A stretch of DNA of 58,004 bases, filler included, from Sphacelaria rigidula (taxonomy: Eukaryota), in assembly GCA_964200075.2 (NCBI GenBank). It is 6 parts of 6 records of this genome, joined end to end, with 100 filler letters (N's around TTAATTAATTAA, not from the genome) between each part and the next. Parts side by side here need not be neighbours in the genome. Positions count along the whole stretch, not along the records: positions 38,738 to 48,321 come from CAXNAA020008157.1; 5 more parts are not named here. One strand, written 5' to 3'. The notes below the pieces were generated by a model, which saw only the letters and a list, made by a program, of their open reading frames with translations, made no database searches and was not told the DNA's origin. Position numbers and translations under genes: made by a program. This document shows positions 1,088 through 52,991 of this stretch, in pieces. Position 1 is the stretch's first letter. Each line of letters opens with the position of its first letter.

Positions 1088-2431
1088 TTAGTTACTGGTC
1101 GGCGCCCGAGTCAACCGCAGTTTACGCAGTTCCTTCAAAACTAATTCAGGCGCAAAAAAATGAATCTTGCGAAGAGACTCCCTCGTACGTTCTTCAGCAC
1201 CGAACCCATCCCAATCGACCAAAACAATGACGTCATCATTGCCATCCTCAGTGACCTGCACCGCAGCATTCATCCGACATTCACCTTGAGCATACAAATG
1301 CTGAAATACATTTTTTAGTTCCGCAATGATGTGTAACTGCGAGTCAGCATAGAAACGCAAACGAGCGACATGGGCCGAGTGCACGGCGCTAGAAACAATG
1401 TTCTGCATCGAATACACGTGAGCGTGATCGGCTCCGACCACTCGCCTCGGACCTGTCCACGTGGACATCAACTTTGGCGTCACACCTTGTCTACGAACAC
1501 GGGCATACGAGACGAAATCGCCAACAGCAAACTTGGGCAGCATAGCCTGGCCCTGAACAAGCTTGCTTTTGGCTTTGCGAGATACCGCGACAGCAGCTTG
1601 CACTTCGTTACAAGACCGCACTTGCTCGTCAACCACGCCTCGAACCTTGTCACGCAACGTATCAGCCTCCATGACATCGACGTTCCACTCGCCGCCAGTG
1701 ACAGAAGTCAGCGCGGAAAACGCGGTACGCGGCGCACGCCCAAACATCACACAATACGGAATGATACGGTAGCGCCAACGAAAAGAAGAATTCAACGCCC
1801 ACTGAGCGGCTGGCAAAACATCAACTCATTCAGACACCGGCCGTCGCTGTTCCGACAAAATAGGCCGCAACGCACGAATAACCTATTTCACCATGCATTC
1901 ACAAGCACCATTTGACCAAGGGGTATACGCAACAGCAAATTGGTGTTGCACCTTGAGCGCGTCGCTCAGCTGTGCGATCACTTGATTCTTGAAGTGCGTG
2001 GCGGTATCACTTACCCAAACACCTGGCACCCCCAAAGTCTTGCACCAATGCAGCAAGTGCTTGGCCGTCACCTCGGCGGTACAAGCCTCGGTCGGCTGCA
2101 AGCAAAAAAAATTGGACAAGTCGTCCATGATAACCAAAACGTATCGAAAACCATCCTCATCAGGCAAACCTTTAGCACCTTTAGGTCCGCTACTCGCGAC
2201 GTACAGGAAATCGAAGTGAACAACTTCACGTGGTGCAGTGTCATGCACAGTGTCGCCATACGGATGAAGTACAATCGCACCAGCACGAGTGTCTACACAA
2301 TGCAAACACTGGCGAACGAACTCGCGAACGTGGGAATCCATGTAAGGCCACACACAGTATTCTTTCAAACGAAACAGAGTCGGCGCCACACCACGGTGAC
2401 CAGCCGACCGCATGCGAGCGCACATCATCAA
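1088..2431 (-). pseudogene. Gypsy integrase (HHCC zinc finger, DDE core, GPY/F-like motif, C-terminal chromodomain), disrupted
   Basis: ORF 1883-2431 has GHRG...WP.M...VR.CLHC, VVHFDFL and WVSDTATHF...NGACE. ORF 1088-1816 has WTGPRRVV and the chromo-like VLVDWDGFGAEERTRESL. Confidence 0.85.
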
Positions 2432-2465
2432 GTGAGGTTGTGTAGAGCCTTATCATCCGACGGAA

Positions 2466-34159: not shown

Positions 34160-35492
34160 CGCAAAGAAAGACTGCTCTCGTGTGCAGCTCCTGCTCCCGG
34201 CCGGAGCTGCCCGGTTTTTATGTTCCGAAAAGTGCAATCCAGGTTTCGACGAGCTTTTCGGACTGATGATCAATCACCGTGTGATGTACTAGAGTTCCGG
34301 GACTATATCTTCGGGATGGTACACGCGATGCGAAAGTGGCCACGGTGATTCGCTGTTGGTGCCAGCTTTAGTGGGTCGGATCCGTGACGAGCACTTGGGC
34401 TGTCGCTGGTCAAATGGCAAGAAATTTGAATTTCAAACTCTGGATATGTGTGCTCGATACCTCTCCTGTCCAGCTGACGAATGAGGTGTTGGTAACGCTT
34501 TTCACATTCAAAACGCAACGGAGAACCTGGCGCACGTGCTCGGGTGGGATCTATCTCATTCGTTTATCTCCTTGCGCCCCTTTTTGCTCGCCCACGCGTT
34601 TCTCCGCACAGCAGGAGACATCCAAATATCATATTTTGGTCATTTTCCAACATTTTTTATCGTCTTTACGGTATAAGGCTTTAGATATTTCAAGATGATT
34701 TCGGGTAACTTTGTGCATAGGGCTGAAGTGGCTGAGGATTTTGGACATGAAAATCTCTGTTCACATAAAGGCTTGCCCGCATGGTGTCGTGGAGCCTTGT
34801 CTAGAGTAGATATTGACACAACAACTAGCAAATATGTGACCTCGGGTCTGCGAAGTCTGATCCTTCGGCGTAGCTGTACCTTCGACTGAAAGGGAGATTG
34901 ATCACTTGACAGATCTTCGCTGTGACAGCGAATACATGCTTCGCACGTTTGCTTCACTGAGTTTCTTAGCCGGCACTTACGCCAGGCACTCTTTCCCTAC
35001 ACCAGTTTTTTCCCGCGCTGCGTTCGCTTCTTCGGTGATCGCTTCATCCACAATTTCCTCTAGAGGGTCGCCTTCTGTGCGTTGTACAAGGTGAAACCCA
35101 GCGCCAGCGGCCGTTGTGCCTCAGGGGCACTACAGTAACGTGTCGTTGTACCGACCAAAACCGACATCATTACATTGATAATTACTTGGCTCTTATGCCG
35201 ATCAGATGATAATCCCAGGCGATCCGCAATATGTCTCACAGGATGCCTGATATAGTGCGTGAGTTGATGGCCTTCGACTACTCCCGAATAGCTTACACCA
35301 TCAGTGTTGAAGTGCCCCACAGGACAAGTTGATATACGAAGGATATGACCGAAGTCTCCCGTCATATCCGTCGTCGAGATACGAGCTACAACTGCGGTAG
35401 GCGAAAAGGCGAACAGTCTTGTGGACAGAAACCAAATTAACCGCGCAACTTCGTGAACGTCGGGCAGGCTCCATCGAGGACGCTCTGCTGCA

Positions 35493-37505
35493 ATGAGCTC
35501 AACACCGGAAAGCGTGGCGGCAACCGAACTGCCGTACCGGTACAGGTGGCCTCGCCCTGCAGTGACGGTTGACTGTCTCATCTATGCACTGGACCAAGGA
35601 GAGCCATGGATCCTGCTCATCAAGCGCAAGAACGACCCTTGCAAGGGTACTTGGGCGCTACCCGGTGAGAGGCCGTTTTCCCACTTTTGTAAATCTGAGC
35701 CGTGCATCGTGCCGAGTATCATCTTGCGCAACAGGCCTCACAAGGATTATCCCTGTGTGCTGCCCAGACGTCCATGACTCCGGCCACTTGAGAACCGATG
35801 TTGACCTTTTGTTTCTGTCGCGCTTCGAACCCCTCCCCTTTCTCAGGACGAGTCCGTGGTGGCAAGGGACCAACCCATATCTCCCCCGTACACGCCTTTC
35901 TGGCATTCTGGTCTCGTGGATTGAGTCAGCACTCACACACCACGTTAACTCTCCTAAAACGACCTCAATCAACTACTTTTTGGTGGATGCCGCATTTCAC
36001 GAAGACCGCGGAAGTGCATGCTTGCATCTGGTGTATTCGCTGTGAGCGATTCCTACCCGGCTCCACGAGCTTTCTACAGTAAATAATTTTCCCGTCGTTC
36101 TCCGTTCTGCTCTTCAGGTGGTTTTGTCGATGAAAACGAGAGCCTTGAGACAGCTGCTCTGAGGGAGCTAGAAGAGGAAACGGGTGTAACCAGCAGCAAA
36201 ATGGTGCAGACAGGAGCATACGGTAAGTTTACGGAGATCAAGTTGTTCGACGGTTGCAATGTGCGTTTCATGGAAAAAGATCGTTTGCTACGGAAATCAG
36301 TCGATAGCGGGAGCACCGAGTCAACTCGAACAGAAGTGGGGTGCGCAGAGATTAGCTTGGCTGCTTTCTCAATCGTACGTTCGACTTTTCTGTTGTTTTA
36401 CATTAATCAGTCCGGGTGAAGTCCGCACTTGTACCCCTTTCATCTTTTGGTTCCGTGACCGTCCACTTCCGTTCGTAAGGTTTTGCGTTTGGATCGTGTC
36501 TGGCAACGGAGATAGACTCGAATCACACCTATCATTAACATGTCGCCTCGGTGGGTCACACCACGGCGCTCTTCTTTGTTACGCCCTGTAGTGAGTAGAT
36601 ATCGACCAACTCTCGGTGTCCTAGACATATCGTGCTGGTGTCATGCATTTTCAACACAGACCACCGACGGAGGGCTAGCCCTACAGGCCCACATTCATCT
36701 CCTTGAGGGACGTCTTCAACCTTTGCCACCGTGCTCTCGTCGATGCGTCCGCAACGTAGGTGATGCTGGGAGGGACCCAAGGGGACACACAGTCACGATA
36801 GCATTCATGGCCTGGGCTCCGTCGAGGGATTCGTGCAACGCCAAGGCGGGAGACGATGCCGCGGAAGCACAGTTCTACCCCGTGAAATCTCTTCCAAAAA
36901 TGGCGTTTGATCACATGAAGGTGCGTAGAGCGTATTGAACATGCCCAACCTAATAAGTGATGTCACAAAGCGAACCCAGACATGTAGGTGCAACCTAAGT
37001 ACCCGATGGGACATCGTCAACTAGAAAGACTCAAAGACTCGGTGTGTACAATGCGCTGGCGCCCCAGACTTGCGATGGAAATTGACACAAGAAAGCAATC
37101 CCGTGGGTGTCACGATACGCTGAGGTAATTTATTTTCGAACACACTGCGACTGACGATTGCCTCTGTGACGTGCCAACTTTAATCGTCACTTCCGTCAGA
37201 GGCAACCATTTTACCGTCTCTTCAATACATGATAGCCAGTCAACTACCCCGGACTGGTATGTGATGCCGAATGTACGCCGACGCACCCATACTTGTTCAC
37301 CTACTTGCTCCTCACGCACCGGTATCATTCCATGCAGATAATTTCCGATTCGTGGGCGAGATGCCGCTTCGAAGTGGGAGCCAATGCGGCCTCAGGGGTC
37401 GTGATAGACAGGGCAACCGATCAAACGCTTGGAGTCTACGAGGTTGAGAAGTCGACCGTGGAGGAACTAGCAGCGCTAATACCCGTGGAGGCGGAGAGCG
37501 GCTGA
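35493..37505 (+). CDS. Nudix hydrolase (ADP-ribose pyrophosphatase / NrtR-Nudix-like), 201 aa; exons 35493-35664, 36118-36222, 36760-36920 and 37338-37505
   Basis: Perfect Nudix box GGFVDENESLETAALRELEEETGV across exons 1-2, with family motifs PRPAVTVD, WALPGGFV, RDPRG, AGDDA and AFDH. Three GT-AG introns are in phase and the exon total is 606 nt. Confidence 0.92.
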
Positions 37506-38637
37506 AAGCAAAGCACTGTGCAAGGCAGGCTGTGGGAGACGCATGGCAATTATCGCTCTCCGTCGGGTGGCATGGAGTATCGGGCAATGCCGACTACGCA
37601 CTGTTATCATCTCCGACCCCGAGAAGTACCACCGGACGTTTCTATATTCGTGCAACATACGGAGAATGTTGTTCAATTTGGCATGCGTACCCCGCACGGA
37701 TTTGCCGCATTTCTCGCTACTATCGCTTTCCACCATTGAGCGTCCAACGTCGAATCGCCCGATCCTCCGTAGATTTCTCTGTGTACCGGACAAATGTATT
37801 GGTGCGGGATAGCATTCCGCTCGTTCCAAGCAAATCGCATGGTGGCGGGAGCTCGAAGCATGACACCCGCGCAATACTTGCCCCCCCTATCGCGTCAGTC
37901 GAAGTAAAGCAGGCGCTACACTCATCACTTTGTTCCAGTAGCTCGGCACGTGAATGTTTCATGTTTTAAAATTGACGTCTTTCTGCATTCGGTGTAAACT
38001 ATGTGAAAGGACGATACAGCTTGTACTAGGCCTCCATGTTCGAAGCCATGATAACCTCATCGAAACCGGCATGCTGTACGATGGCACCCAGGTGCTGCAG
38101 GTCACGCCTCTTCACCAGTTCATGTCTGGCTCTCCCTAACCATCATTAAATATACCTCGCAAGCACATGGGGTGTGCTGATGTCTTGCCTGTGTTGGGAA
38201 GATAGAGATGCCCTCTCAAAAAAATGGCCCATTGCCTTGTTCTTGCATACCGTGTCTTGACTTGGAGCAGGCAGGGCCGAGTGATTCAAACGTTCTCGAA
38301 GTCAGAGCAAGAGGATTCCTCACCCCAAGCTTCTTATGGGAACGGATTTTCCCCAGTCCATCCCCTAAAACACATTGTTGGAACGTGGTACGTTGACGAT
38401 TATGGTGCACACAGTTTTTTTTTACATACTTGCGATTCTCCATGCTAAATGTTCGAAGTACAACGCTTAAAGCCGAGCTGAAAAACTGGTTTTAAACAAT
38501 ATTCTTGTCCCACGCAAACGCCCTCAAGTCATGAAAAACGGGGGAGGGCGAGCGGGGGGGCGGGGGGGGGGGGGGGGAAGGGGGGGGGCCAGCCTAATTT
38601 TTCCTTTCCTTTGTTTTTTGGGCGTCGGAGGGAGGGG

Positions 38638-38737: not shown

Positions 38738-38856
38738 GTCGCCTGCCACCCGGACCCTTTAGCACATGGTTTTCCAACGACGCTACGGTGCAAGACAAGC
38801 GACTCGAACGTGGCACACTACGCAAGGTGAATGGGGAAGAAGACTCGGATGCGGCA

Positions 38857-39741
38857 TCATGAGTCATCTGCATCCCAAGCGGTTTCCGTGTTCCGTAGAA
38901 CGGCTGTGTCGAGATCGCCTTGGTCGTGTCGTTGGAGGCACCAGGATCCCCTCCGAGCGGTCTGCACCTTGATGTAGTATGCATTATCCAAGCGAATCTT
39001 TAGGGGGCTCGGGTCATCGAGAAAACGGATAAAGTAGGAGTGGTCAGATGCATGATCGACCGAATCAATTTTACACAACCACCACAATGAATCCAAGGCC
39101 TTATACCAAAAGTACGCCCCCTTCGGCAAGCGTTGTCCGTGAAAAGACTGCATGTACTGTGAACGCGAAAGAAGACGATAGCCTGTTACAACAAACCGCA
39201 CTGAGTGTTCACGTGTCAGTTCCCGAGCGGTAGCTCCCTTGCGCATCGACCAATATCTCTCATTCAACGGGCGGTGTTGGACGGTATCTCCTACCCAGTA
39301 CAACAATATTTCCCGACGAAAATGACGTAAATCAACTTCACGCTCCCATATAAGACGCATGATACCCTTCCAATGTGTTTGATACATTACCGATATCTTA
39401 CCTCCACAACCGCGAACCAGTTGATGGCCCGAAATCCTATCTACCTCAACGTGTTCTAGGGGTGTGTCCGCATCCTCGACCGTCATATGATACGGCGGAG
39501 TTTCGATCGCATACGTGGTCAACACATACTGGCTAAGCCCTAGCGGCAGTTGTCTGGGCATGTCAGAGGAGTCATGAGGGGGGATACACGGTTTGCATCG
39601 TAGCATCAAGACGCGATTTTTCGGTTTCAAACCAGGTTCATCCGTGGGGAAAGCTAAATGCAAAGGTTTCGCTCCCACAGGCTCTTGTCTGGTGCGGTAG
39701 CGCTCGGACCAACAGCTAGCATTTCCCAAGGACCAGTCCAA
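38857..39741 (-). pseudogene. Integrase C-terminal extension: chromo-like domain plus PWWP/Tudor-like domain
   Basis: EVDRISGHQLVRG...MYQTHWKG...WEREVDL, then LPKGAYFWYKALDSLWWLCKI...YFIRFLDDP...GSWCLQ. Conserved in 51217-52560. The domain names are by-eye assignments. Confidence 0.6.
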
Positions 39742-42700
39742 TTCAAGGATTATTTCGTCTTCAACACCTTGTCCAAAGATGATGATTTCGAGCTAGCCCC
39801 TTGATTGATGGTCTCCACATCGTTATACACCCATGCTCATTGGCCTACCTTCCACACCGGGCGGTTATGCACCACACCATCCAACACCGAGTTCGCCCTG
39901 GCCACCTTGGCCAAATTGATTTGGTTCTGTTCTCGTACCACTTCATATGCAAGACGAAGACGATTGCTAACCGACAAATGATACTCTATAACATCACGAT
40001 CCAGGCTCTGATGCCCACCTGTATTTTTACGTTAGAATACCCTTGAAGGTAACCTAGGCATGCGACCAGTATGAATCTCATTCGGCGACAATCCCGTAGC
40101 GACTTTGACTGAATAGTTGTAGTTCATTTGGACAAGGGGCAGGTGCAGATCTCAGTACATCTATCTCTCATTTGCTACAGCAGCAAGCATCTGTGCCATC
40201 GTATGGTTCACTCGTTCCGCTCCACCATTGGTGAAGGGGTGATATGAACCAGTAAAAATGCGATGGGCACCCAAACGGTTACTGACGGCGGCGGGAAGTT
40301 TGCCTGAAAAATGCGGGCCGTTGTCAGACAGTAAGCGTTTGGGCACACCCCACTGTGGGATGTACATGTAGACAAGAATGTTGGCGGTACCTTCCGCGGT
40401 ATAACTACTGGGGGGGGACAGCATGCATAAGCGCATGTCGACTAAACCTATCCGTAAACATTTATCCGAAAACAAAAAAATGAACTTATGACCACTATCC
40501 GTCAGGGGTAAAGGACCGAAAAAGTCCCACGAAACTACTTCACCAGGCCCGTTTGGGAGAGGCACGGAAACAAGCGGCCAACGAACTGTTTGACGAGAAG
40601 GTTTTCGCGCCTGACCCAAAAGACCAAGCCCCACCCACCAACGTACACACTGACTCATACAAATCCCCCAATAGAAACGTTCCAACATCTGGGAGGACCT
40701 AATGGCGCCTAAATTAGTCGATGCCTGTGAATGGCATTCGTGTAGAACCCATGGGCGCAGGAGCATCGGGACATAGATGCGGATGGGTTCATCACCTAGA
40801 AGCGGGCATGGCGACTTGTCGTCTTCAATGGTCAAATGACTAAGGCAAGCAACAAATGAGTACGCCCCCCCTGGGCAGGGCTGCTGTGGGCCTGCGAGCT
40901 AACAGAACTATACCATCACCATCCGTGTACAGCATACCTTTTCTTGAAAGTTCAGTAACTTCATCCTGTGTGAGAGCTTTGAAATTCCCGACGGGCAAAA
41001 GGAATTCGATCTCTGAGAATGGACATGGGTAACCTTTCGAAAGATAATGGATAGCTGATTTACAAGCAGGTTCTGTCTGTTGTTCCCGGGCCCAATCGGC
41101 GTGGCAGAAGAGAGTCAAACGTTCCTTGAATACGCCATCTGTTGAAGCGTTTACTTCGTGTTGGATCGATTCGGGGCGGGGTTGGCATGAAGCGGTGATG
41201 TCGGAATTAAGGGTGAGCCTACCAGTTAGTGTACTCTCAGACGGAACATTAACGTCTACTCCTGCATCGATTAGCGTGGAGGGTATTGTGGTGGTGTTTG
41301 CAATATCATCACCAAGGGATGGGGGCATAGCCGTGGTTTCGGCTATGGTTGGCAGGGGCGGCACGGTCAAGGTCGATATTCTGGGGGCCTTACGCCGTGG
41401 AGGTTGAGGAGGCACAAGGAAACTATCGGGAACCGGGGTGGGGGCAGGGAGGGGAAGGTCAGGACCAAATACGGCTAATTTGGTGGCCGTTTCGGCGGTC
41501 CGCCGTCTACGAGTCCTACTCGAAATCAAATCTCGAACTTGAACTGGTAAGACGGAGTCAGCAAAGGACGGTTCTACACCTTCTGCGAAAACCATGCGCT
41601 GGCCAGTTGCACGAAAATGACCATATCCAACAGTATTCGTAGACAATCCATTCCAAACTGAGTACAACGACTGAGGTTGTAAGCTGCCCAGAAGAGATAC
41701 GTGGGCTGTGGTCGTCAGCCCACCAATGCCTAAAGCCGGCGTTTCTCTCAGTGAAGATGGTATGTAGAGACCTTTATGTCCATTCTGGCTAATGAAATAT
41801 ACAATGTCCTCGGTGGGATCGGCGATATGTCCCATGGGGGATTCATCGATAGGTTGAGCTGGTGTGGGCAAGCGTGACAAGAAGTGGGTGTTCGCACTCT
41901 GGAGACCTGTCGGTACTTTAGTTGAAAGTTGTAAGACGACAGGATTTCGAACCAGCGTTGGACCCTGGTGTTGTGTTCCGCCATTTTGGCGAGGCTTTCC
42001 AAAGACTTATGATCGGTATAAATCACAAACGGGACGTCATACAAATACTGACGCAGACGTCGCACGCCCCATACAACTGCGCCGGGCTCTTGTTCCATGA
42101 CAGACCAATTCTGTTCATTCGGAAAAGTGGTGCGACTCAGATAGACCAGGGGACGAACAGTAGCATCGACTTGCTCCTGTTCTAATGTGCAGCCAAACCC
42201 AATTTTGGAAGAATCTATGTGGAGAGGGAAAGGGCGGGAACCTTGCTCCGCTACCGACCAGTCGGGGAAGACGAGAATCGGCGGGCGCGAAAGGGTATCA
42301 AGAAGACGGCGGACGGTGTTTTCCATTTCCGGTGTAAACACAAATTCCACCCCTCTTTTGAGGAGGGTGGTGGGGGGTTTGAGCTTTTTGGCAAGGTTTG
42401 GCAAGGACTGTTCGTAGTAGCTTAGACCTCCCCACGAGGAACGCAGTGGAGAAATATCCCGTGACAGGGGCAGATCGGCGAGTGCGGCGACCTTGTCGAG
42501 GTTTGGGCTACGACCTTCGGGGGTGATGCAATGACCCAAGAACTCAATCTTCGTGGCGCCAATACGGGATTTGGAGGGGGCGAGTTTCAAGTTGTGTTGT
42601 TCAAACCGATGAAAGAATGATACCAACTGTTCGACGTGTTCAGCCGGTGTAGAGTCGTGGCACACCGCATCATCAAGGTACATATGGCATTTGGGCAATC

Positions 42701-45700
42701 CATTAGTTACACGGACACATTACACGTTGAAACGTACCTGGAGCTCCGGCGGCACCTTGTGGTGTAACCAGCCACTCGTACAAACCTGATGGCGTGCAAA
42801 ACGCTGTCAGTTCAATGTAAATTTAGATCCATCACGAGCTGGTGGTAGCCGGATTACATGTCAAAGTTCAAAAATACCTTACCCCGCCAAGAGAGTAAAT
42901 AATTTCATCAATCCATCGAAGTGGCAGCCGGGCAATTTTGGTGACAGCGTTCAATCGTTAATAATTGACAGTCAGCCTGATTATGCCATTTTTCTTGCGG
43001 ACGACTACTAAAGGCGAGGCCCACGGAGACGTCGAGTGCCGAATTATACCGCCGGATAAGTAACCTTCGAAAACTACCCGGATCTTATCCGCTAAGAGGG
43101 GGTTCGTACGGTACGGGCGCATAGCGATAGGTGGAGTGCCATCAAGGATTTTGGTCTTGAACGGTGTCGTGGTACATCGACCCAAATCCAAGCGTGCAGT
43201 AGAAAACCGTTCAGAATATCGAAACCAATATGCCGTAAGTGAGGGGGGGTGTCATCCCACAACATTTGAAAACTGGCCCGTTGTTCTGAGGAAAATCTAT
43301 TCAGTAATGCAGTTGGTGGTTGAGGTTCAGGCGCATCTGGTGGGTTTGTCACCACCATGGGGTCAGGCATGTGTAGCGGAGGGGGGCCCGTGGATTCCGG
43401 GGGGTCGGTTGACGAGTTGTTGTCCGCAGGGGGGCACACATCTTACAGGGCTGTTCGTATGAGAGGCGCTTGAGCATAACCCAACAACTTACCGTTGAGT
43501 ATATCGAAACATGCAGGGGACGTAAGGTAAATGGCCTGCCTACCTTCGTGGACGAAGACTTCGGTCTATTCAAACGGACCAACCTGTGCTTGGTCAGGTT
43601 TGAGCAGCTCGACCAAATAATGTCCTGTGAGGGCGGGCGATCCATTGCGTCTCACGAGATTCACTTTTATAAGTTGGGGTTCACGAGAAAGCGAGACTAC
43701 AGGTTCACCAATATAGTACAGACGGAAAGCATCACCTGTTTGCGTGGGGTCATCCTCATGGGCGTGAGCTCCCGAATCAGTGTCGAAGTGACCCAGTGAC
43801 GGTTTGCCTGTGACTGGACGGTTCGGGAAAGGTGTGTGCGACGTATACATGTGAGTGGAAAAACGAAACCAACTATCTCGACCCAACAAGACATCAAAAG
43901 ACATGGAACCGTCGGGCACAATTAGTGCCCATACGGACAACCGAGCAGTGGGAGTAGTATCCTGGTAGAATTGTACACTTCGTCTCACCGATTGGTTAAT
44001 CGTAAGACATGTGGAGGAACCAAAACCACCAAAAACACGAGGGTGAACGGTGGACCGACACTGCTCGTCCGCCGCGCCCGCGTTGATCATCTGTTGCCAG
44101 CAGCTGGCTGTAATGAATGTTTGAGGCGAACTAGAGTCTAGTAGCACTAGAACTATCAAATGACAGTTTGCACGCGCTCCACTATGTAAACCTATCTCGG
44201 TCGTGAAAGAAGCATCATCCATAGTTTCAGTACCACTGACGAGATCGGGCCCGAATTCGGGTAAGACATCTGGCACATCCTGCTTTGAATTTTGAACGAA
44301 GGTGCTGAAAGACACCCGTTGATGATCCTGTGGGACAAGCTTTTGGTCGGAAGGATGGTGCGTGCATGGAGTGTCAGTGTTTCTGCCTGAAATGTTTGTC
44401 TCATTAGTCGAGGGTTGAATCTCATGTACTGCAACGGAGGGGCGATGCTGGGGAAAAGCGGTTCCCGTGGTTGGACCCGACAACTATTTTGTGCGTGGTG
44501 TTTCACCCTTATTGGCCAACGGAGGGGGCGAATCGTCGTTGTGCAAAGCGGGATCAATTACATTATCCACCTTGGTCAGAACAGGAGACGATTCATCGGG
44601 GCGCGGTGTTGAGTTTGATGCCAATCAACTCAATACCATCACTAGTTAGGGCCAACATGGGAGGTTTTGGAGACGATTCGTCAGGACGCGGAGTTGGTGA
44701 AGCTGTGCTGTTCGACCCGGCGTCTACTAAAGGGGCCAACGTGGGCGAGTCAGGAGACGTGTCGTAGCTACTGCCGAGATAGCCCCCCCCCGAACCGGCC
44801 AAAAATGTGCACGGAGACGATGATCATAAACGCCGTTAGAGCTGGTTTCGTGTTCCACGACGCGACGTATTTGGGCGTTATAGCTGATTTCGGACTACTT
44901 CAAGCCTTTCATGTTGGTGGAATTGCTGCACACGAGCCCAATAGTGGGATCGCAGCCGGTTTGTCGGACGGTCTCCAGTGCACTTTTTGTGGCGGGGCTA
45001 TCTCGGCATTAGTCTCGTCTTGCGTAACACTTCATCTGCCTGGTGACGAACACACGATTGAGGTGCCTTCATGACTAGGATGCGAACGTCCATGCGTCGG
45101 CGAAGTCTCTGTCCCTACAGACGGCAACGCTTCATCGGAAATGGGTTCTAACGCAGTGCACGGTGGGTGATCAGGGAGCCGTAACGACCTGTTCGAAATC
45201 TGGGCAGTACCGGCCTGTTCCACTGTAAGGTTTTCATCTGTCTGAGCCCACACGCAATCTCTTCCTTGGAGTTCACGTGCGCTTGCTACATCAGGGTTAT
45301 CTACATGATCATCTGGAGGAGCCCGCCTAGGGTGACGCGTATAGCCCACGAAAGGGTCTGCGGCTCCAGGAGCTATTGAAATGAGTTGTCGGACAGTCGA
45401 ACCTAGGTCACGCTCTTGGTGCACCACCTGAGTCGCTGTCACTTGGGGCTCCATTCCAACCCACTGAGCGACGGAAAGCATGGGCTCTTCGCGGTTGCGA
45501 CCCCTCAAGGAATAATTAAGCTCATAAAATATAAGAGAACCGGGTACCGTAGTTTTTGCGGAACTCGGCAGGGGGGTTAGCCGGGCACTCGAGCTGCTGG
45601 GGGGGGTGTTGTGGGGCTTCGAAATTCGTATGCTCCGATGAACGGTCGAAGTGGCAGCGTCTACCGTACCAGAAGATATTTCGGCTCCGGATGTCTTAGA

Positions 45701-47080
45701 AACTGCACTACATGACCTCCTCTCCTCTGAAGGGAAGGGTTTCGATTGAATATGAGTAGTACCTGGTGAATGTAAAACTGGGTGATCAAATCCAGGATTC
45801 AAACGTTGGGTTTGGTCAGTGCTCAACTGATAGCCATGTAACGGTACACGGGCTTCGACTGTCTTGGAATCCTTCAGAGCAGTGTCAGCATATCCAGGGA
45901 AGCCACACCACATGGTTGAACCCCCGGTGGCCGCCGTTGATTGAAGTGTGTGATGTTTATGACCTGACGGAGCGGAAAATAATTGTTGGGTACTTCTGCG
46001 GTGAGTTACCGGCGAACGTTAATTCCTTATTGTGGGGCTATGCCAACGGTTGGGGAACGAACGGTCGTCAGAAGTGTAAAATGATCGCGCAGGTGGTGGC
46101 GTCCAGGTTTTCGGGTCAGTCACACGTCCTGTGTTACCTCACTGCTCGCTGCTCGGTAATGCGGGGGCTTGGTAAACGTTCCCAGAAAACGGTCAGGGGG
46201 TGCGGTGAGCATCAGGGGTGGGTTGTCGGGCGTCTTCCTAGCGTGGGGGACCCGTAGGACTAGGTGCAATCATCAGTGGTCGTCGTCCGTCTTGTGATTG
46301 TACCTGGTTCTGCTGTTGGGAGTTTGCCGGGTCAGACTGTGTCAGATGTAGCGCCGAGTCAGCGGGCCGCGTCTGGTGGTGCGCTGTTTGGTACTGCGGG
46401 TTTTGGTAGCTGGAAGCGTTATCATAAAAGCGATTACCCCGTCTAGGGCGGTTGTTTTGCCCACGCGTGTCGCCGGATTGAGGGCGGCGGTAAGAACGCA
46501 TACGCGCTTGCCAAGTTGGCCAGCACGATGCATATTGCGGATCGTGGAATATGTTATTCAAGACGCCGAATACGTTCACAAACGGTGCCTCGCAGGTGCG
46601 CATGACATGGATGGGAACTCGGCCGTCGGCGGAGTACCCAGTTTGTCCATCGAACCATATTCCGCATTTGAAGCATTTGTCCTTACACTCGCGGATAAGC
46701 TCGTTACGGATGTAGGGTTCGACGTCGCGGGCCCAGAGGGGGGGGTCGTGGTTGTTCATGGAGGTGCTCACGTTGAACACCTCCGGCCAAATTTCGTTGG
46801 CGAAGGGTCAGCGTGGAAATCGACTAGCAAATGCATCTGGCACCTGAATCTGGGCGGTCATCATGACTTCTCCTGCAGAAGTCATTGAGTGGGATATCCA
46901 CGCCGGTTGACTCGATTTCCTGCTGGGTTGCGTTCGTGACGCAGGGGCAACTGGAGTGGGAAGAGTTCCCTGACTAATTACCTGCGTACCGTGTTGGCTA
47001 AGCGCCGAAGTGGTGCCGTCCTGTCTTACTCCTATCGACTCCACAGCCTATGTACGATTCGTACGCAACCTATCGAGTCG
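38857..47080 (-). mobile_element. Decayed Ty3/Gypsy retrotransposon: gag C-terminal part, long linker, protease, RT, RNase H, linker and integrase with extended C-terminus
   Basis: Gag knuckle-like CFKCG...H..RTC (46238-46780); protease VLLDSSS...VLLGRD (43566-44483); RT SPWASPLVVV and MYLDD; RNase H LHIDSSKIGFG and YTDHKSL (41748-43191); integrase VSWDFFGP, LLSDNG and NGGAERVN (40161-40835). Many stops and frameshifts. Confidence 0.92.
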
Positions 47081-47478
47081 ACTGCATACAGTCCTTGTTC
47101 AGGTTCTTGAAAGTTCTAATAACACTGTAGGACTTGTGTGTTGTGTTCAGTGTACTACTCTGTACTGCTATATATACTGTAGGACCTCTGTATTTTAATA
47201 ATAGAGATTCAAGTATGTGGGAGGGGTCACGTTTTGGACAGGTTGTTTTTGAAACGTTCTGGGTGTTGCTTAAACGGTTCTGATTGTTTATTGGAAAATT
47301 CTGATTAGTTATTGAGGAGTTCTGATTGGTTCTGAAAATATATTTTGAAAAAAACAAAATTACGTGTTTTGTCACAGAAATCAAATGCCGAATCTGAAAT
47401 GGCCTGAGTCAACAACCAACTTGAAAATTGGAATAGGTATCAGTAGATGAAGGAGTAGAACTATTTTCGAAGATTTGG

Positions 47479-48244
47479 TGTCGATAAGAAGGTCCTAACT
47501 CTCCGAATTCTTATTCTTGAAAAAAAAACATACCCGATTCGCGAAATCCCGTGTTGTATCCTCTACTACTCTCAATCTCACGAAAACATGGTTGAGGGTG
47601 ATGATAACCTGATCTTTGAGACTCTTGTTCACTTGTGTTTTTTTTTGCGACGGCATCGTGATGTAAATCCGAGAACGAGAAGTACTGAGCAACACTGTAC
47701 GGATGTCAAGATGGAGTTCAGCATACATGTCCTACTGGGACAGCAGAGAAGCTCCAGTTGGAGTTCTATATTCAATGTGCAACACAATGGATACCCGACT
47801 AGGACTGAGAGAGGCAGACGGGATTCCATGAACACTGGTCTACCTCTGTCCTCTCTGATCGAATGTGAACCTTTCCCTCGATTTCCGGCCTCGCGGTCTG
47901 CCCTTGCGCCGCATCGCTTCCGTACTTTCCTCTACTGTTCTCTTCATGTATATCACTCTCTATTTATTTGATAACTTCTCTCGCCGACTCCCTGTTATAG
48001 AGAGCAGTGTTTCGGAGATTGTCCTGTGTCCAGGGTGCTTTCAATTCCAATTTATTCCGGTGTTCGGGACGTTGCCGTCTCGGGTTTCGGCGGTGAAACC
48101 GGAGTGGTCTCGGCTGGGCCCTTCTACTCGAAAGTGACAAGGTCTACCCGTACCTTTGTTTTGTAAGTTGCATGTGATATTTATCTTCAATGGCTCGGAC
48201 GAAACATCGCCGATTTGAATCACCAAATGACACTTTCTACGATA
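47479..48244 (-). repeat. Probable LTR preceded (minus strand) by a G9 polypurine tract at 48246-48254
   Basis: TGTCG...CGATA termini, non-coding, with an adjacent C9 run. There is no second copy in the window to confirm it. Confidence 0.45.
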
Positions 48245-48321
48245 GCCCCCCCCCAAAACGTGTTGCTCCGTCTCGAAAGGGATGCGTGGTCAATGGTCAA
48301 ATGACTAAAGCAAGCAAAAAA

Positions 48322-48491: not shown

Positions 48492-51400
48492 CAATGCTAT
48501 TTTGGATGCATACTTAGGAGCTGGTCTGATTCAACACTCGTCTTCGCCATGGGCTTCACCCCTCGTGGTCGTCCCCCCCAAAAATGGCAACATACGCATC
48601 ACCATGAACTTCAAACGGCTGAACCGCGTCATTGTCGTGGGAAAATTCCCCATACCTCGCATCGACGAAGTCTTCGACTCTCTCAGCGAAGGAAAATATT
48701 CAGCACTTTCGACCTGGCCTCTGGATTTTTGCAAAATGCGATTCACCCCGATACAGTTCCCTTGACGGCGTTCTGTACATCTTCAGGGCTTTCTGAAGGG
48801 CTTCGTATGCCACAAAGCGCTGCCACCGCACCTGCCTGCTTTCAACGCCTCATGCAACGCGTTACTGACGGTCTCGAGCATGTTGTCATATATCTCGACG
48901 GTGCTATTGCTTTTGACACCTCCCCCAAGGCGCATGTTCGCACTCTACGAAAATTCCTCTCCCGCTTGCGTACACACGACTTGAAATTGTCTCCATCCAA
49001 AGCTCGACTCGGAGCCACTGAATTGGATTTTTTGGGACACTATATCTCTCCTACTGGATTGCACCCAGACACGAACAAAGTCAAGGCTATGACTGATCTG
49101 CCCATGTCCATCAATATTTCCAGCTTCGCTCGCTGTTGGGTGGACTTTCCTATTATCGCAAATATTTGCCCAACTTGTCCAAGCGCATCCGGCCCATCAC
49201 AGATTTTTTCAAGAAAAACATCCCGTTTGTCTTCACTGAAGGAATGGAAGCCACCGCCCGCGAACTACTCAAAACACTGACCGAAAAACTGGTTCTTTTT
49301 TTCCCGGATTGGGACGCGGTACAAGACGGCTCACGTCTTTTCCAACTACACACCGATGCTAGCACAGATGGGTTCGGTGCCGTTTTGAACCGGCCCTAAC
49401 TGGACGGCTCTGTCCGACCAATTTTGTACATCAACCGCGCAACACTCCCGAACGAGGCTAACTGGAGTCCACTCGAACTAGAAGGCGGAGTCATAACTTG
49501 GGTGATTAAAAGGCTTCGACAGTACTTATTCCACGTGCCTTTCCACATCTATACAGACCACGGTGCTCTTGAGCAACTCGCTAAGGTTAGAGAACATAAC
49601 CCCCGCGTACAACGGTGACTGGAGTTCTTGACTGCCTACCAGTACACTGTCAAACACCGTTCAGGCAAAACCAATGGCAAAGCTGACCTTCTTTCGCGAT
49701 TGCCTCTGCATCCTACAGCGGTAGATTTCAGTCCCGCTTGCCGCTTGACTGAACCTGATGAACCAGGCGTCTAGCCCATTCGGCGTTTTTCTACGCCCAT
49801 CTACGCGCTTGACCTGCAATGCCCTGAAACGGGTCTGCACATGGGGGGCCTCCGCCCTCTGCCCCCTGATGCAGGTTTGGATGGCTTAGCGCCCACAGCG
49901 GCTGATTCTGCCGACTTCCGCACTTTCGGCCCTCGCGCGAACATCCCGGCGCCGCCACCACCACCTGTTCACCTCGTCTCCGACAACACGCGTTCTCGGT
50001 CGGTAGCTCGCGCAAATTCTTCGCGTGCCATGATACCACCGCCGCCGTCGGCCGCTTCTACCAATGCGTCGCCGCCGCCGCCTCGTGCCCCCACGAGCCG
50101 TGCAACACCTACCGCACCCGACCGTGTGCCCATTGTTGTACCGACAAAGTCCGCGCGCCGATCACGTTCACCAGTTCGCGCTACCTCCCCGTCGCTATCT
50201 GGGAATCTCCCTGCACCTGCGCCTCTGACTCGCGATACACATACGTCAGACCTGCTTCCGGATCAAAATATTGACGTCAGCACCCCCGCTTCTTCACCTG
50301 TGCCACCCCCCCCTGAGCCACCATGTTTGGTTGGCTCTCCGGCTGAAGGACAACTTCGAGAATTTCTCGCTGGCTACTCTCACCGCGATTAGGCTTGCGG
50401 CCAACAACAGGAACCGCTCTATCGCGCGACAATGCGGTACTTACGGCTTAACTGCCCCACCCCTTTCCCGGCTGAGATCCTGACCCCCGTGGGCACTCTA
50501 CCCGCCCCCACCGCCTCTGAAGTGCTCGAGCTGGCATGCAAAGGTACTCTCTTCGCGACTGACGACGACGTCCATTTCTTTGTTCGCCGACCCAACTCCC
50601 ATTGGGGCACAGCTGCCGCAGTGACAACTATTGCTCCGGCACATATGCGTCATGACGCCCCTATCTGCATCTATGTCCCTATCATGATGCGTCCGTGGGT
50701 CACGAAAGGCTGTCACTCTGATTTGTCCTGCCATTTAGGCGTCACGCGCACGTTAGCGCCCCTTGAACGCTTTTATTGGTGGATCGGAATGGAAGCATCC
50801 ACGCGTTTTTGGATCCGACGATGTTTCAAATGTCGGGCTCGCAAAACCTCTCGACATACTGTACGATGGCCGGTGATTTCCATGGAGCTTCCAAACGCTC
50901 CTGGTCACTTCGTATCGTTCGACTACTTCGGCCCTTTACCCACCACTAACCGTGGTAATACCTACATTCTGCTTTTCACCGATCGCTTCAGCCATCACGC
51001 GGCTATGTAGGCCGTTACTGCCAGCGATTTCACTGCTGCCGGCACAGCGGACAGCCTCGTCCATGACAACATTAAGCACTATGGCTGCCCAAAACGGCTC
51101 CTCTTCGACAATGGTAATTTTTCTCCGGAATCTTGGAGGCCTTGTACAAGCTCCTCGTTATTCGCTAAATTGCCACGAGCGCCTACCACCCTAACGGTAA
51201 CGGTGGAACTGAACGTGTGAACCACACGATGGCTCAAATGCTATCCATGATCGTATACGACCGTCAGAATGACTGGGAACTTCATCGTTCGCATGTCATG
51301 CTGTCTTACAACAATGCGGTTGACTCGGCTACCGGTCTTTCGCCCAACGAGCTGCATCTTGGACGCTACCCTCGTCTGCCCATCACCGTTTTCGAAATAC

Positions 51401-52570
51401 ATACCTTCGATGGTCACCAAGGTCTGGAACAGGATCAGATGTCCTACCACGACCTCGCCAGGGCTCGTCAGCGCAAGGCTTTCACTTTGGTGCGCGAACA
51501 ACACGCTATCAACGCCTCACGCCTTGAAAGATCCAATACCGCCCAATACAACTTGATGCACAAACGCGCTACTCGGAAGATCGGCGATTGGGTCTGGATC
51601 TACAACAGTTTGTCCACCATCCGTCAAGGCGCTGACCGCACTGCCCAGGCAACAGTTTTGAAGACGACGCTGTCCCTCAATTGGACGGGTCCGTTCCAAC
51701 TTCTCATTATCGGACCCTCGCCGACGTCTTCTGACGGCAAGCCTGTTGGCGACAAACTCCTCTACCTCGATTTACCTCGTGACCTCCAGGGACACGACGC
51801 AAAATCTCGCGTCTCTGTGCATCGTTGCAAGCCTTGCACGAACCTGCATGACACTACTGGCATGCCTCAATACCTGCCTGTAGGTCTCACTCAATACGTG
51901 CTCAACAGCTACTCAACAAAATCTCCACCGTACCACGTTACCACCGATGACGTGACTGAACAACCTCTCCGCTTGGCCGTGCCCCACAGTTCCGGTCACC
52001 AAATCACTCGAGGTCCTGGCGGTAAAATTGCTGTCATGTACAAGACACACTGGCAAGGTCTTCGGCGTGCATCTTGGGAACGCGAGTCCGACTTTCAACA
52101 GCACCGTCGTGCTATCCTTCTCTATTGGACACAATCCCCACAGCAACAGCTCGCTGACAACAAGGGTTATCGCAACATGAGACGCGGTGCTGCGGCCCGC
52201 GAACTCCACCGCGACAAAGGACTACGTTTTGTAGCCGATAGTTACGAACTCGTACGCACCAAACAATGGGACGAAAAGATTCGCGCGAAACAACAACCGC
52301 TCCGTAAAGGTGCCTATTTGTGGTATAAAGGTAGCGATTACCTCTGGTTGCTAGGGCAGATCCACTCCGTCGATGCCCTCGCGGCTGACGCGTACATTGT
52401 GCGTTTCCTCGACGACCCTGCGCCCGTTCAGCTCAAGCTCCGCCCCGATTTATACACGACTAGCCCCTCCGCACCCCGCGGTTCCTGGTGCCTACAACGC
52501 TTCAAGTCACACGGCCTACGCCGCGGCCTTCAGCGCAACATCGATCGTACCTACGACATCAATGTACCAT
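48492..52570 (+). mobile_element. Decayed Ty3/Gypsy pol (RT, RNase H, P-rich linker, integrase with chromo-like and PWWP-like extension), related to 38857-47080
   Basis: SSPWASP, FDLASG, IYLDG (YxDD mutated), DFLGH, LHTDASTDGFG, CH...CHLG...CFKC, VSFDYFGP, WTGPF and a C-terminus alignable with 38857-39741. Confidence 0.92.
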
Positions 52571-52991
52571 CTTCAGTCCTATCTCTTTGCACTCCCATTC
52601 TCGCGATTTTTTCTCTCTTCTCCCAGTTTGGCTCTGGTAATTCCCTTGTCCCCACTCAAGTACGCTCTTCTCTTCACTGCTTCACGTACAATGGCTCTCC
52701 TATCGCGGCTCATATTTGCCCTCATCGGCCCCTTCGACGACTTCCTCTGGACCCCCTTCGCCCCCTTCCATTGGCCTCTACGCTGCCACCACTTTGTCTG
52801 GCTGACACTCGACCCTATTCGGGTCCTTGGGTTTTTGTTTTCCTGCTTGAGATTGCCACTGTGTCCTCTGCGAGGTTTTCCTTTGCTTTTTATCTAGCTA
52901 GCGCGTCGAAGCATTGTATGCTTTTTCCGTCTGCTGGCTAGCTCGCAGCAGTATTGTGTGCTACTGCGCAGTCAATCGCTATTGCGTAATT

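Follow-up and report, generated by a model that had tools for sequence, protein, structure and literature searches.

Introduction

Four lineages of Gypsy retrotransposons have been described from Ectocarpus (Dinatale et al., 2025; PMC12477816). Three of them carry putative chromodomains, lineage IV among these has a NADAR domain as well, and Gypsy-10_Ec32 ends in a C-terminal Tudor domain. The latter element was called the first transposable element with a Tudor domain, and a homolog was reported from Tribonema minus (PMC12477816). According to the accessible text of that study, the brown-algal chromodomain lineages are unrelated to chromoviruses. Of the marks that chromodomains usually bind, H3K27 methylation is reported to be absent from brown algae and H3K9 methylation to be mostly absent; H3K36me3 and H3K79me2 are present (PMC13076208).

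The landing sites of retroelements are set by integrase targeting domains, which are also candidate components for steering insertion. An initial annotation of a locus from Sphacelaria rigidula, made from the DNA sequence alone, had proposed a Gypsy integrase that carries a chromo-like domain and, behind it, a second chromatin reader of the PWWP/Tudor type. The element is not a chromovirus proper, the brown-algal chromodomain lineages being reported as unrelated to that group (PMC12477816). The two-domain tail itself is real and conserved, and as an architecture it has apparently been overlooked. In the following, its fold, distribution and selection are described, and its possible roles are weighed.

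Results

The window, i.e. the whole stretch of DNA analysed (58,004 nucleotides), consists of six contigs of ~9.6 kb each, separated by N spacers, from the 244 Mb host assembly. The element of interest, element 1, lies at the end of contig 8157 (CAXNAA020008157.1; window positions 38738-48321) and is a decayed Ty3/Gypsy pol on the minus strand with the order protease, reverse transcriptase (RT), RNase H and integrase. Both this order and a GPY/F region, as expected for Ty3/Gypsy, are found in the element 1 family. By comparison with relatives, the decayed protease region was placed at 43209-44429 (minus strand). It is followed by decayed RT and RNase H (41716-43221, minus; Pfam RVT_1 and RT_RNaseH, 47-53% to the related pol P0179). 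The integrase (39663-41109, minus) is disrupted by stops and frameshifts in this copy; its H2C2 zinc finger, DDE core and WTGP (GPY/F) region at 39743 were recognised by weak Pfam matches (rve, Integrase_H2C2) and by tblastn (51% to P0179). No NADAR match was found upstream of the protease region of the element 1 copy. An insertion of ~250 bp at 44765-45014 is missing from other copies of the family. Similarity to these copies stops at 38763, close to the contig end; element 1 is truncated ~100 bp past the pol stop, and the window yielded no pair of LTRs.

Some further features of the window were recorded. A long Pro/Ser/Thr-rich stretch between RNase H and integrase (40900-41900, minus) is poorly conserved and present in relatives too. 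A short genomic repeat of very high copy number with C-rich loose ends lies within pol just ahead of the integrase (40825-40872). The preceding contig contains a host gene split by an intron (35490-37506, plus), Nudix hydrolase-like by eye and unrelated to element 1.

The motifs quoted for the tail in the initial annotation are genuine and are all located in a single stop-free frame of the minus strand (38857-39792). The tail had also been placed behind the DDE core and the WTGP motif. This is correct for relatives, but in the element 1 copy a frameshift separates the two, WTGP (39743) and DDE core being in another frame than the tail, and stops are present. The fusion to integrase therefore rests on relatives: P0005, P0006, and P0008 have the integrase core and the complete tail in a single frame, and the same holds for full pols, P0179 and P0192 among them.

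An AlphaFold2 model of the tail, built from 51 sequences, was confident across both domains (pLDDT 88.7, pTM 0.79). It predicts three strands and a helix (residues 13-63), helices (74-113), five strands (123-185), and two short helices at the end. In the numbering of P0002, residues 10-63 form a chromo-like domain (39292-39453, minus), as judged from predicted strands and helix, structural matches, and a residue census. Residues 64-113 form a basic spacer (39142-39291, minus), delimited by predicted helices, its charge, and a conserved Arg-rich helix. Residues 117-186 form a Tudor-like five-stranded barrel (38923-39132, minus), placed by the AlphaFold2 model, Foldseek, a PDB profile search, and dN/dS. 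A short helical tail, placed by the model and the alignment of copies, and the pol stop codon (38857-38859) complete the protein (38857-38922, minus).

A Pfam scan of the window tail returned no family at E up to 10, a profile search of the PDB that used the complete alignment gave no match, and single-sequence PDB searches gave unrelated matches only. Nothing at E ≤0.001 was found in a viral fold library, and a scan of IMG/VR found no relatives of the tail. In the ESM Atlas the best scores were 0.80 and 0.85; clusters labelled Chromo, KIF2A-N, PWWP, and Spin scored 0.79-0.80, and all of these are leads only.

The host genome holds at least 150 close copies, since all of the 150 candidates scored, out of 1140, matched the 207-residue tail (62-87% identity, element 1 itself excluded). 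A second subfamily with the same tail is 41-49% identical. It includes element 2 on the next contig of the window (48493-52593, plus), in which RT, RNase H, integrase, chromo block, spacer, and barrel follow each other, the chromo block near 51973 and the barrel at ~52300-52500. As copies within the genome, the second subfamily, and element 2 all carry the tail, it is not a product of chance. Among proteins with a full chromo match and ≥130 residues behind it, 80 of 83 have the barrel, although this set, collected by family profiles, is biased toward such co-occurrence, and 33 further proteins that end ≤60 residues past the chromo block were excluded from it. Of the three exceptions, two seem to be frameshifted; in P0171, the remaining one, the barrel is divergent but can be aligned by profile (probability 97.8).

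Named relatives with the tail come from S. rigidula, Ectocarpus sp. CCAP 1310/34 (P0214), and Nemacystus decipiens, a taxonomic range drawn from few named records. Two predicted proteins, P0108 and P0136, join the tail to unrelated N-terminal parts (TIMP and WSC in P0108, from Nemacystus) and may be gene-model chimeras or captures.

Selection was assessed by net dN/dS between the subfamilies (Nei-Gojobori; between-subfamily values minus the mean within subfamilies; 62 of 70 copies used). Values of 0.06, 0.05, and 0.07 were obtained for the barrel, the fourth of four pairs being saturated; the spacer gave 0.05-0.24, the chromo block 0.06 (one unsaturated pair), and the integrase core 0.04, 0.08, and 0.01. 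With dS near saturation and several values saturated, these ratios are rough. The barrel is constrained as strongly as the integrase core and is under purifying selection. A neutral read-through product with a chance resemblance to a barrel is excluded by the low dN/dS.

For the first module, the model shows strands at 13-23, 29-37, and 43-47 and a helix, i.e. the three-stranded sheet with C-terminal helix of chromodomains. Residues 8-83 resemble the chromodomains of Chd1, Chp1, HP1, Oxpecker, and Rhino (Z 6-7.4), and 10 of the 51 members had a weak match to the Pfam Chromo model (E 0.0025 at best). Conserved positions were counted in a census of 117 non-redundant rows from 188 matches. Aromatic residues occupy the first cage position in only 5 of 86 rows and the third in 8 of 96, compared to 84 of 98 for the middle Trp. 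The loss of the two outer cage aromatics, noticed earlier in element 1, is thus family-wide; the three-residue cage of group I is absent, and the sole remaining cage Trp is encoded at 39370-39372. Module 1 is a chromodomain of the group II-like kind.

The spacer is predicted to form helices at 74-90 and 106-113, and its Arg-rich helix is conserved (R80, R86, E87, and R90 in 73-78 of 86-88 rows). The mean net charge over 45 rows is +3.7 for the chromo block, +6.3 for the spacer, and +1.3 for the barrel.

The predicted fold, Foldseek, and the profile search agree on a second small beta-barrel of the Tudor/SH3 type behind the chromodomain, as had been supposed. With the whole model, Foldseek ranked the PHF19/PHF1 Tudor first (E 0.005, 29% identity over 48 columns), and did so again with the barrel alone (E 0.02). 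In an independent PDB sequence-profile search, PHF19 filled the top three places (E 0.1). The SH3-like barrel has the strand order of Tudor domains and a D-G-x-W-x-x-G-x-I hairpin; its structural matches are weak and, by Z, tied with SH3 barrels outside the Royal family. Folded alone, the barrel reached a pLDDT of 74 with a weak last strand, the alignment being shallower (25 versus 51 rows). For the isolated barrel, RimM scored Z 5.6, and Spindlin, PHF20L1, UHRF1, one PWWP, SETDB1, SMN, and a designed SH3 scored 5.2-5.5; TraI (Z 5.9) and KOW barrels were level with Tudors, and every match remained at Z <8. As no structural match is significant and RimM, TraI, and KOW tie with the Tudors, Royal-family descent is likely rather than proven. 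Taken together, module 2 is predicted to fold as an SH3-type barrel, and its descent is most probably from Tudor domains.

These ties also bear on a different role. C-terminal domains of retroviral integrases are SH3 folds that serve in intasome assembly, in binding of viral RNA or DNA, or in particle packaging, and the barrel might be an additional accessory domain of this kind that plays no part in target choice. Besides the generic barrels, which equal the Tudors (RimM Z 5.6, TraI Z 5.9, KOW), the weak Pfam matches within the 51 members would fit this explanation, the myosin SH3 model being hit in 7, Agenet in 4, PWWP in 1 (E 0.12), and Tudor_2 in 1. However, the barrel sits behind a recognisable chromodomain and folds together with it in the model, searches that take sequence into account prefer chromatin Tudors, and another brown-algal Gypsy lineage has a clear Tudor at the same place. 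We consider a purely accessory role unlikely.

The PWWP label of the initial annotation was not sustained. In place of P-W-W-P the family has L-W-W-L (59 of 70 rows share the Leu of position 135), and the motif prolines are missing. Position 131, which we take to be the PWWP cage Tyr/Phe just before the P-W-W-P motif, is aromatic in 0 of 72 rows. No PWWP entry was present among the Foldseek matches listed, in which the PHF19/PHF1 Tudor ranked first. A PWWP domain could be argued for from the tie of one PWWP structure (6kco, Z 5.3-5.4), the single Pfam match (E 0.12), and the two short helices behind the barrel; this possibility, even combined with that of neutral read-through, is very remote. 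The tail is of Tudor-like and not of PWWP type, and it is probably no canonical reader of H3K36me3.

The cage of PHF19 consists of W50, Y56, F74, and Y80, and the exchange W50A abolishes binding of H3K36me3 (PMC7105160). In the alignment to PHF19, W50 corresponds to A128, Y56 to W134, and F74 to F153; the HMMER alignment stops just short of the Y80 equivalent, for which counting gives 159 or 160 (P159). The W50 position is aromatic in 0 of 75 rows, being Ala, Ser, or Gly in the family, and the Y80 position in 0 of 65 or 0 of 63 rows. The Y56 and F74 positions are aromatic in 59 of 70 (W134) and 58 of 68 rows (F153), so that two of the four cage residues are kept. Further well-kept residues of the barrel are D155 (58 of 67 rows) and Y126 (aromatic in 62 of 75). 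The expectation that the barrel aromatics are conserved across the family was thus borne out for W134, F153, and Y126. The most divergent relatives, P0171 and P0065, have Gln at the W134 position and retain W133.

Of the proposed second Royal-family reader of H3K36me, the Tudor-like barrel stands. The reading of H3K36me is doubtful, since no row has an aromatic residue at the W50 or the Y80 position, and canonical H3K36me3 reading is unlikely on the basis of these residues. Nevertheless, the barrel could truly read methyl-lysine by means of a rebuilt pocket, formed by W134, F153, D155, and perhaps Y126. It would then recognise H3K36me, H4K20me, or H3K79me2, steer insertion, and replace a chromodomain whose usual marks the host has lost. 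The H3K36me3 readers PHF19/PHF1 came first in two independent searches (26-30% identity over ~48 residues), the F-x-D pair is conserved in the barrel, and Tudor cages are variable, with 3 to 5 aromatics and often an Asp (PMC13285377); two of the candidate marks, H3K36me3 and H3K79me2, are present in brown algae (PMC13076208). Against this, only two canonical cage aromatics are left (W50 position 0 of 75, Y80 position 0 of 65), the most divergent relatives, P0171 and P0065, have lost W134, and LTR elements of Ectocarpus, taken as a class, lie mainly in distal intergenic regions rather than in gene bodies, which the authors ascribe largely to selection (PMC12477816). A rebuilt reader is possible but, on this evidence, doubtful.

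The integrase cores were compared in a tree of 38 hand-thinned rows, which comprises three lineages, has no outgroup, and does not include the published Ectocarpus family sequences. Element 1 is on the 28-row side (support 98/98), and all five NADAR-bearing pols of the tree lie there within one subgroup (100/99). Its family thus groups with NADAR-bearing pols, the feature that marks lineage IV. Pols with the order NADAR-PR-RT-RH-IN, which resemble lineage IV, carry the same tail (P0179, P0214, P0253, P0260, P0284, and P0287), the chromo part of P0214 being partly deleted. Within the host genome only two NADAR matches (L131, L132) were found, both on contig C4 and outside the tandem-tail Gypsy family; the stronger one is similar to P0179 in the NADAR part only. 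The element 1 family is a NADAR-less relative of lineage IV and not a member. As the NADAR pols nest in the tandem-tail clade and the host families are without NADAR, this domain was either gained later or lost in this host.

A separate lineage of the same genome has a PTM/DIR17-type Tudor at the pol end (76 matches among 150 scored). Pfam PF21743 matched 8 of 8 of its members versus 0 of 51 of the tandem-tail family, and its integrase, 20-28% identical to that of the tandem-tail family, forms its own branch of the tree. In these elements (L071-L100, e.g. L079:1201-1650, plus) the Tudor aromatics are intact, and the block before it resembles, by eye, a chromodomain without a cage. Profile comparisons between this tail and the tandem tail gave no match, but neither did the positive control, in which a recognised chromodomain was compared with module 1. 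Speculatively, since a chromo-looking block precedes the Tudor in this lineage too, Gypsy elements of brown algae could even have acquired a tandem of degenerate chromodomain and Tudor on two occasions.

A third Gypsy lineage (L104-L130) has a single terminal chromodomain whose three cage positions are Phe, Trp, and Phe; an integrase at window positions 1421-2440 (minus) groups with it.

Discussion

From the model, the last ~200 residues of pol would be a single folded appendage on the integrase, composed of chromodomain, basic helical connector, and Tudor-like barrel. We propose, at a probability of roughly 0.5 for the whole reading, that this appendage is a chromatin-tethering unit that acts via basic contacts to the nucleosome and its DNA, or via a host chromatin protein, and not via a canonical trimethyl-lysine cage. 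Judging from its position, the tail would remain attached to the integrase after processing of pol. By analogy to chromodomain integrases, it may then tether the integration complex to host chromatin, where basic surfaces would grip nucleosomal DNA or a host chromatin protein. Such surfaces are preferred over a trimethyl-lysine cage because both cages are half-missing. Tandem Tudors can indeed bind nucleosomes via DNA with no methyl selectivity (PMC13285377). On the other hand, a non-canonical pocket could be made up of W134, F153, D155, and Y126, all of them well conserved. What the data show directly are the sequence, its fusion to integrase, conservation, selection, the predicted folds, the cage residues, and the charge; any partner in binding and any influence on insertion sites are inferred.

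A bolder version assumes that the lineage built a two-domain reader, in which the Tudor barrel reads H3K36me, H3K79me2, or H4K20me via the rebuilt pocket in hosts devoid of H3K27 and most H3K9 methylation. This is speculative, with the odds well against it. If true, this would be the first integrase known to read such a mark, equipped with its own equivalent of the LEDGF-PWWP tether, which HIV takes over from its host.

For a tethering tail as for a reader, the finding concerns a conserved two-domain tail that escapes Pfam in a lineage abundant across brown algae (Sphacelaria, Ectocarpus, and Nemacystus). It is relevant to what chromodomain-type modules bind in genomes that lack the classic marks of heterochromatin, and to the mode of action of group II chromodomains, which have no cage. 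Chromatin maps exist for Ectocarpus, in which the function of the tail is directly testable.

The initial annotation was not aware of any description of this architecture. In the literature covered, which did not extend to subscription journals and Repbase, no description of a tandem of chromodomain and Tudor or PWWP on an integrase was found, and the accessible parts of four further reports contain no such tandem (10.1101/2021.11.30.470311; PMC11541908; 10.64898/2025.12.07.692804; PMC5348765). The impression of novelty holds to this extent, but a Tudor-carrying Gypsy integrase from Ectocarpus, of another lineage, is in print, with no tandem mentioned in the accessible text (PMC12477816).

That element, Gypsy-10_Ec32, is similar to the present family in that it is a Gypsy element of brown algae whose pol ends in a Tudor-type domain. 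It differs in forming a lineage of its own, apart from the NADAR and chromodomain lineages, a comparison made by description only (PMC12477816). The PTM-Tudor lineage is likely its counterpart in S. rigidula; that Gypsy-10 belongs to the tandem-tail clade instead seems quite improbable. Lineage IV (e.g. Gypsy-12_Ec32) is connected with the family through NADAR-bearing pols, yet as published it has a putative C-terminal chromodomain only, and the accessible text mentions no barrel behind it (PMC12477816).

Outside brown algae, the barrel is closest to the Tudors of the Polycomb-like proteins PHF1, PHF19, and MTF2, which gave the best structural and profile matches in the same strand register over ~40-48 residues. 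Two of their four cage residues are missing from the barrel and the matches are below significance; direct descent is not claimed. Chromoviruses, Chronos, and ECR elements are described, in the text accessible, with a single chromodomain and nothing like the barrel behind it, and ECR-1, unlike the tandem-tail family, has kept all three cage aromatics. With group II chromoviruses (Tekay, Reina, and Galadriel) the family shares a chromodomain behind the integrase from which the first and third cage aromatics are missing, a pattern known from the chromoviruses of plants (PMC3605345).
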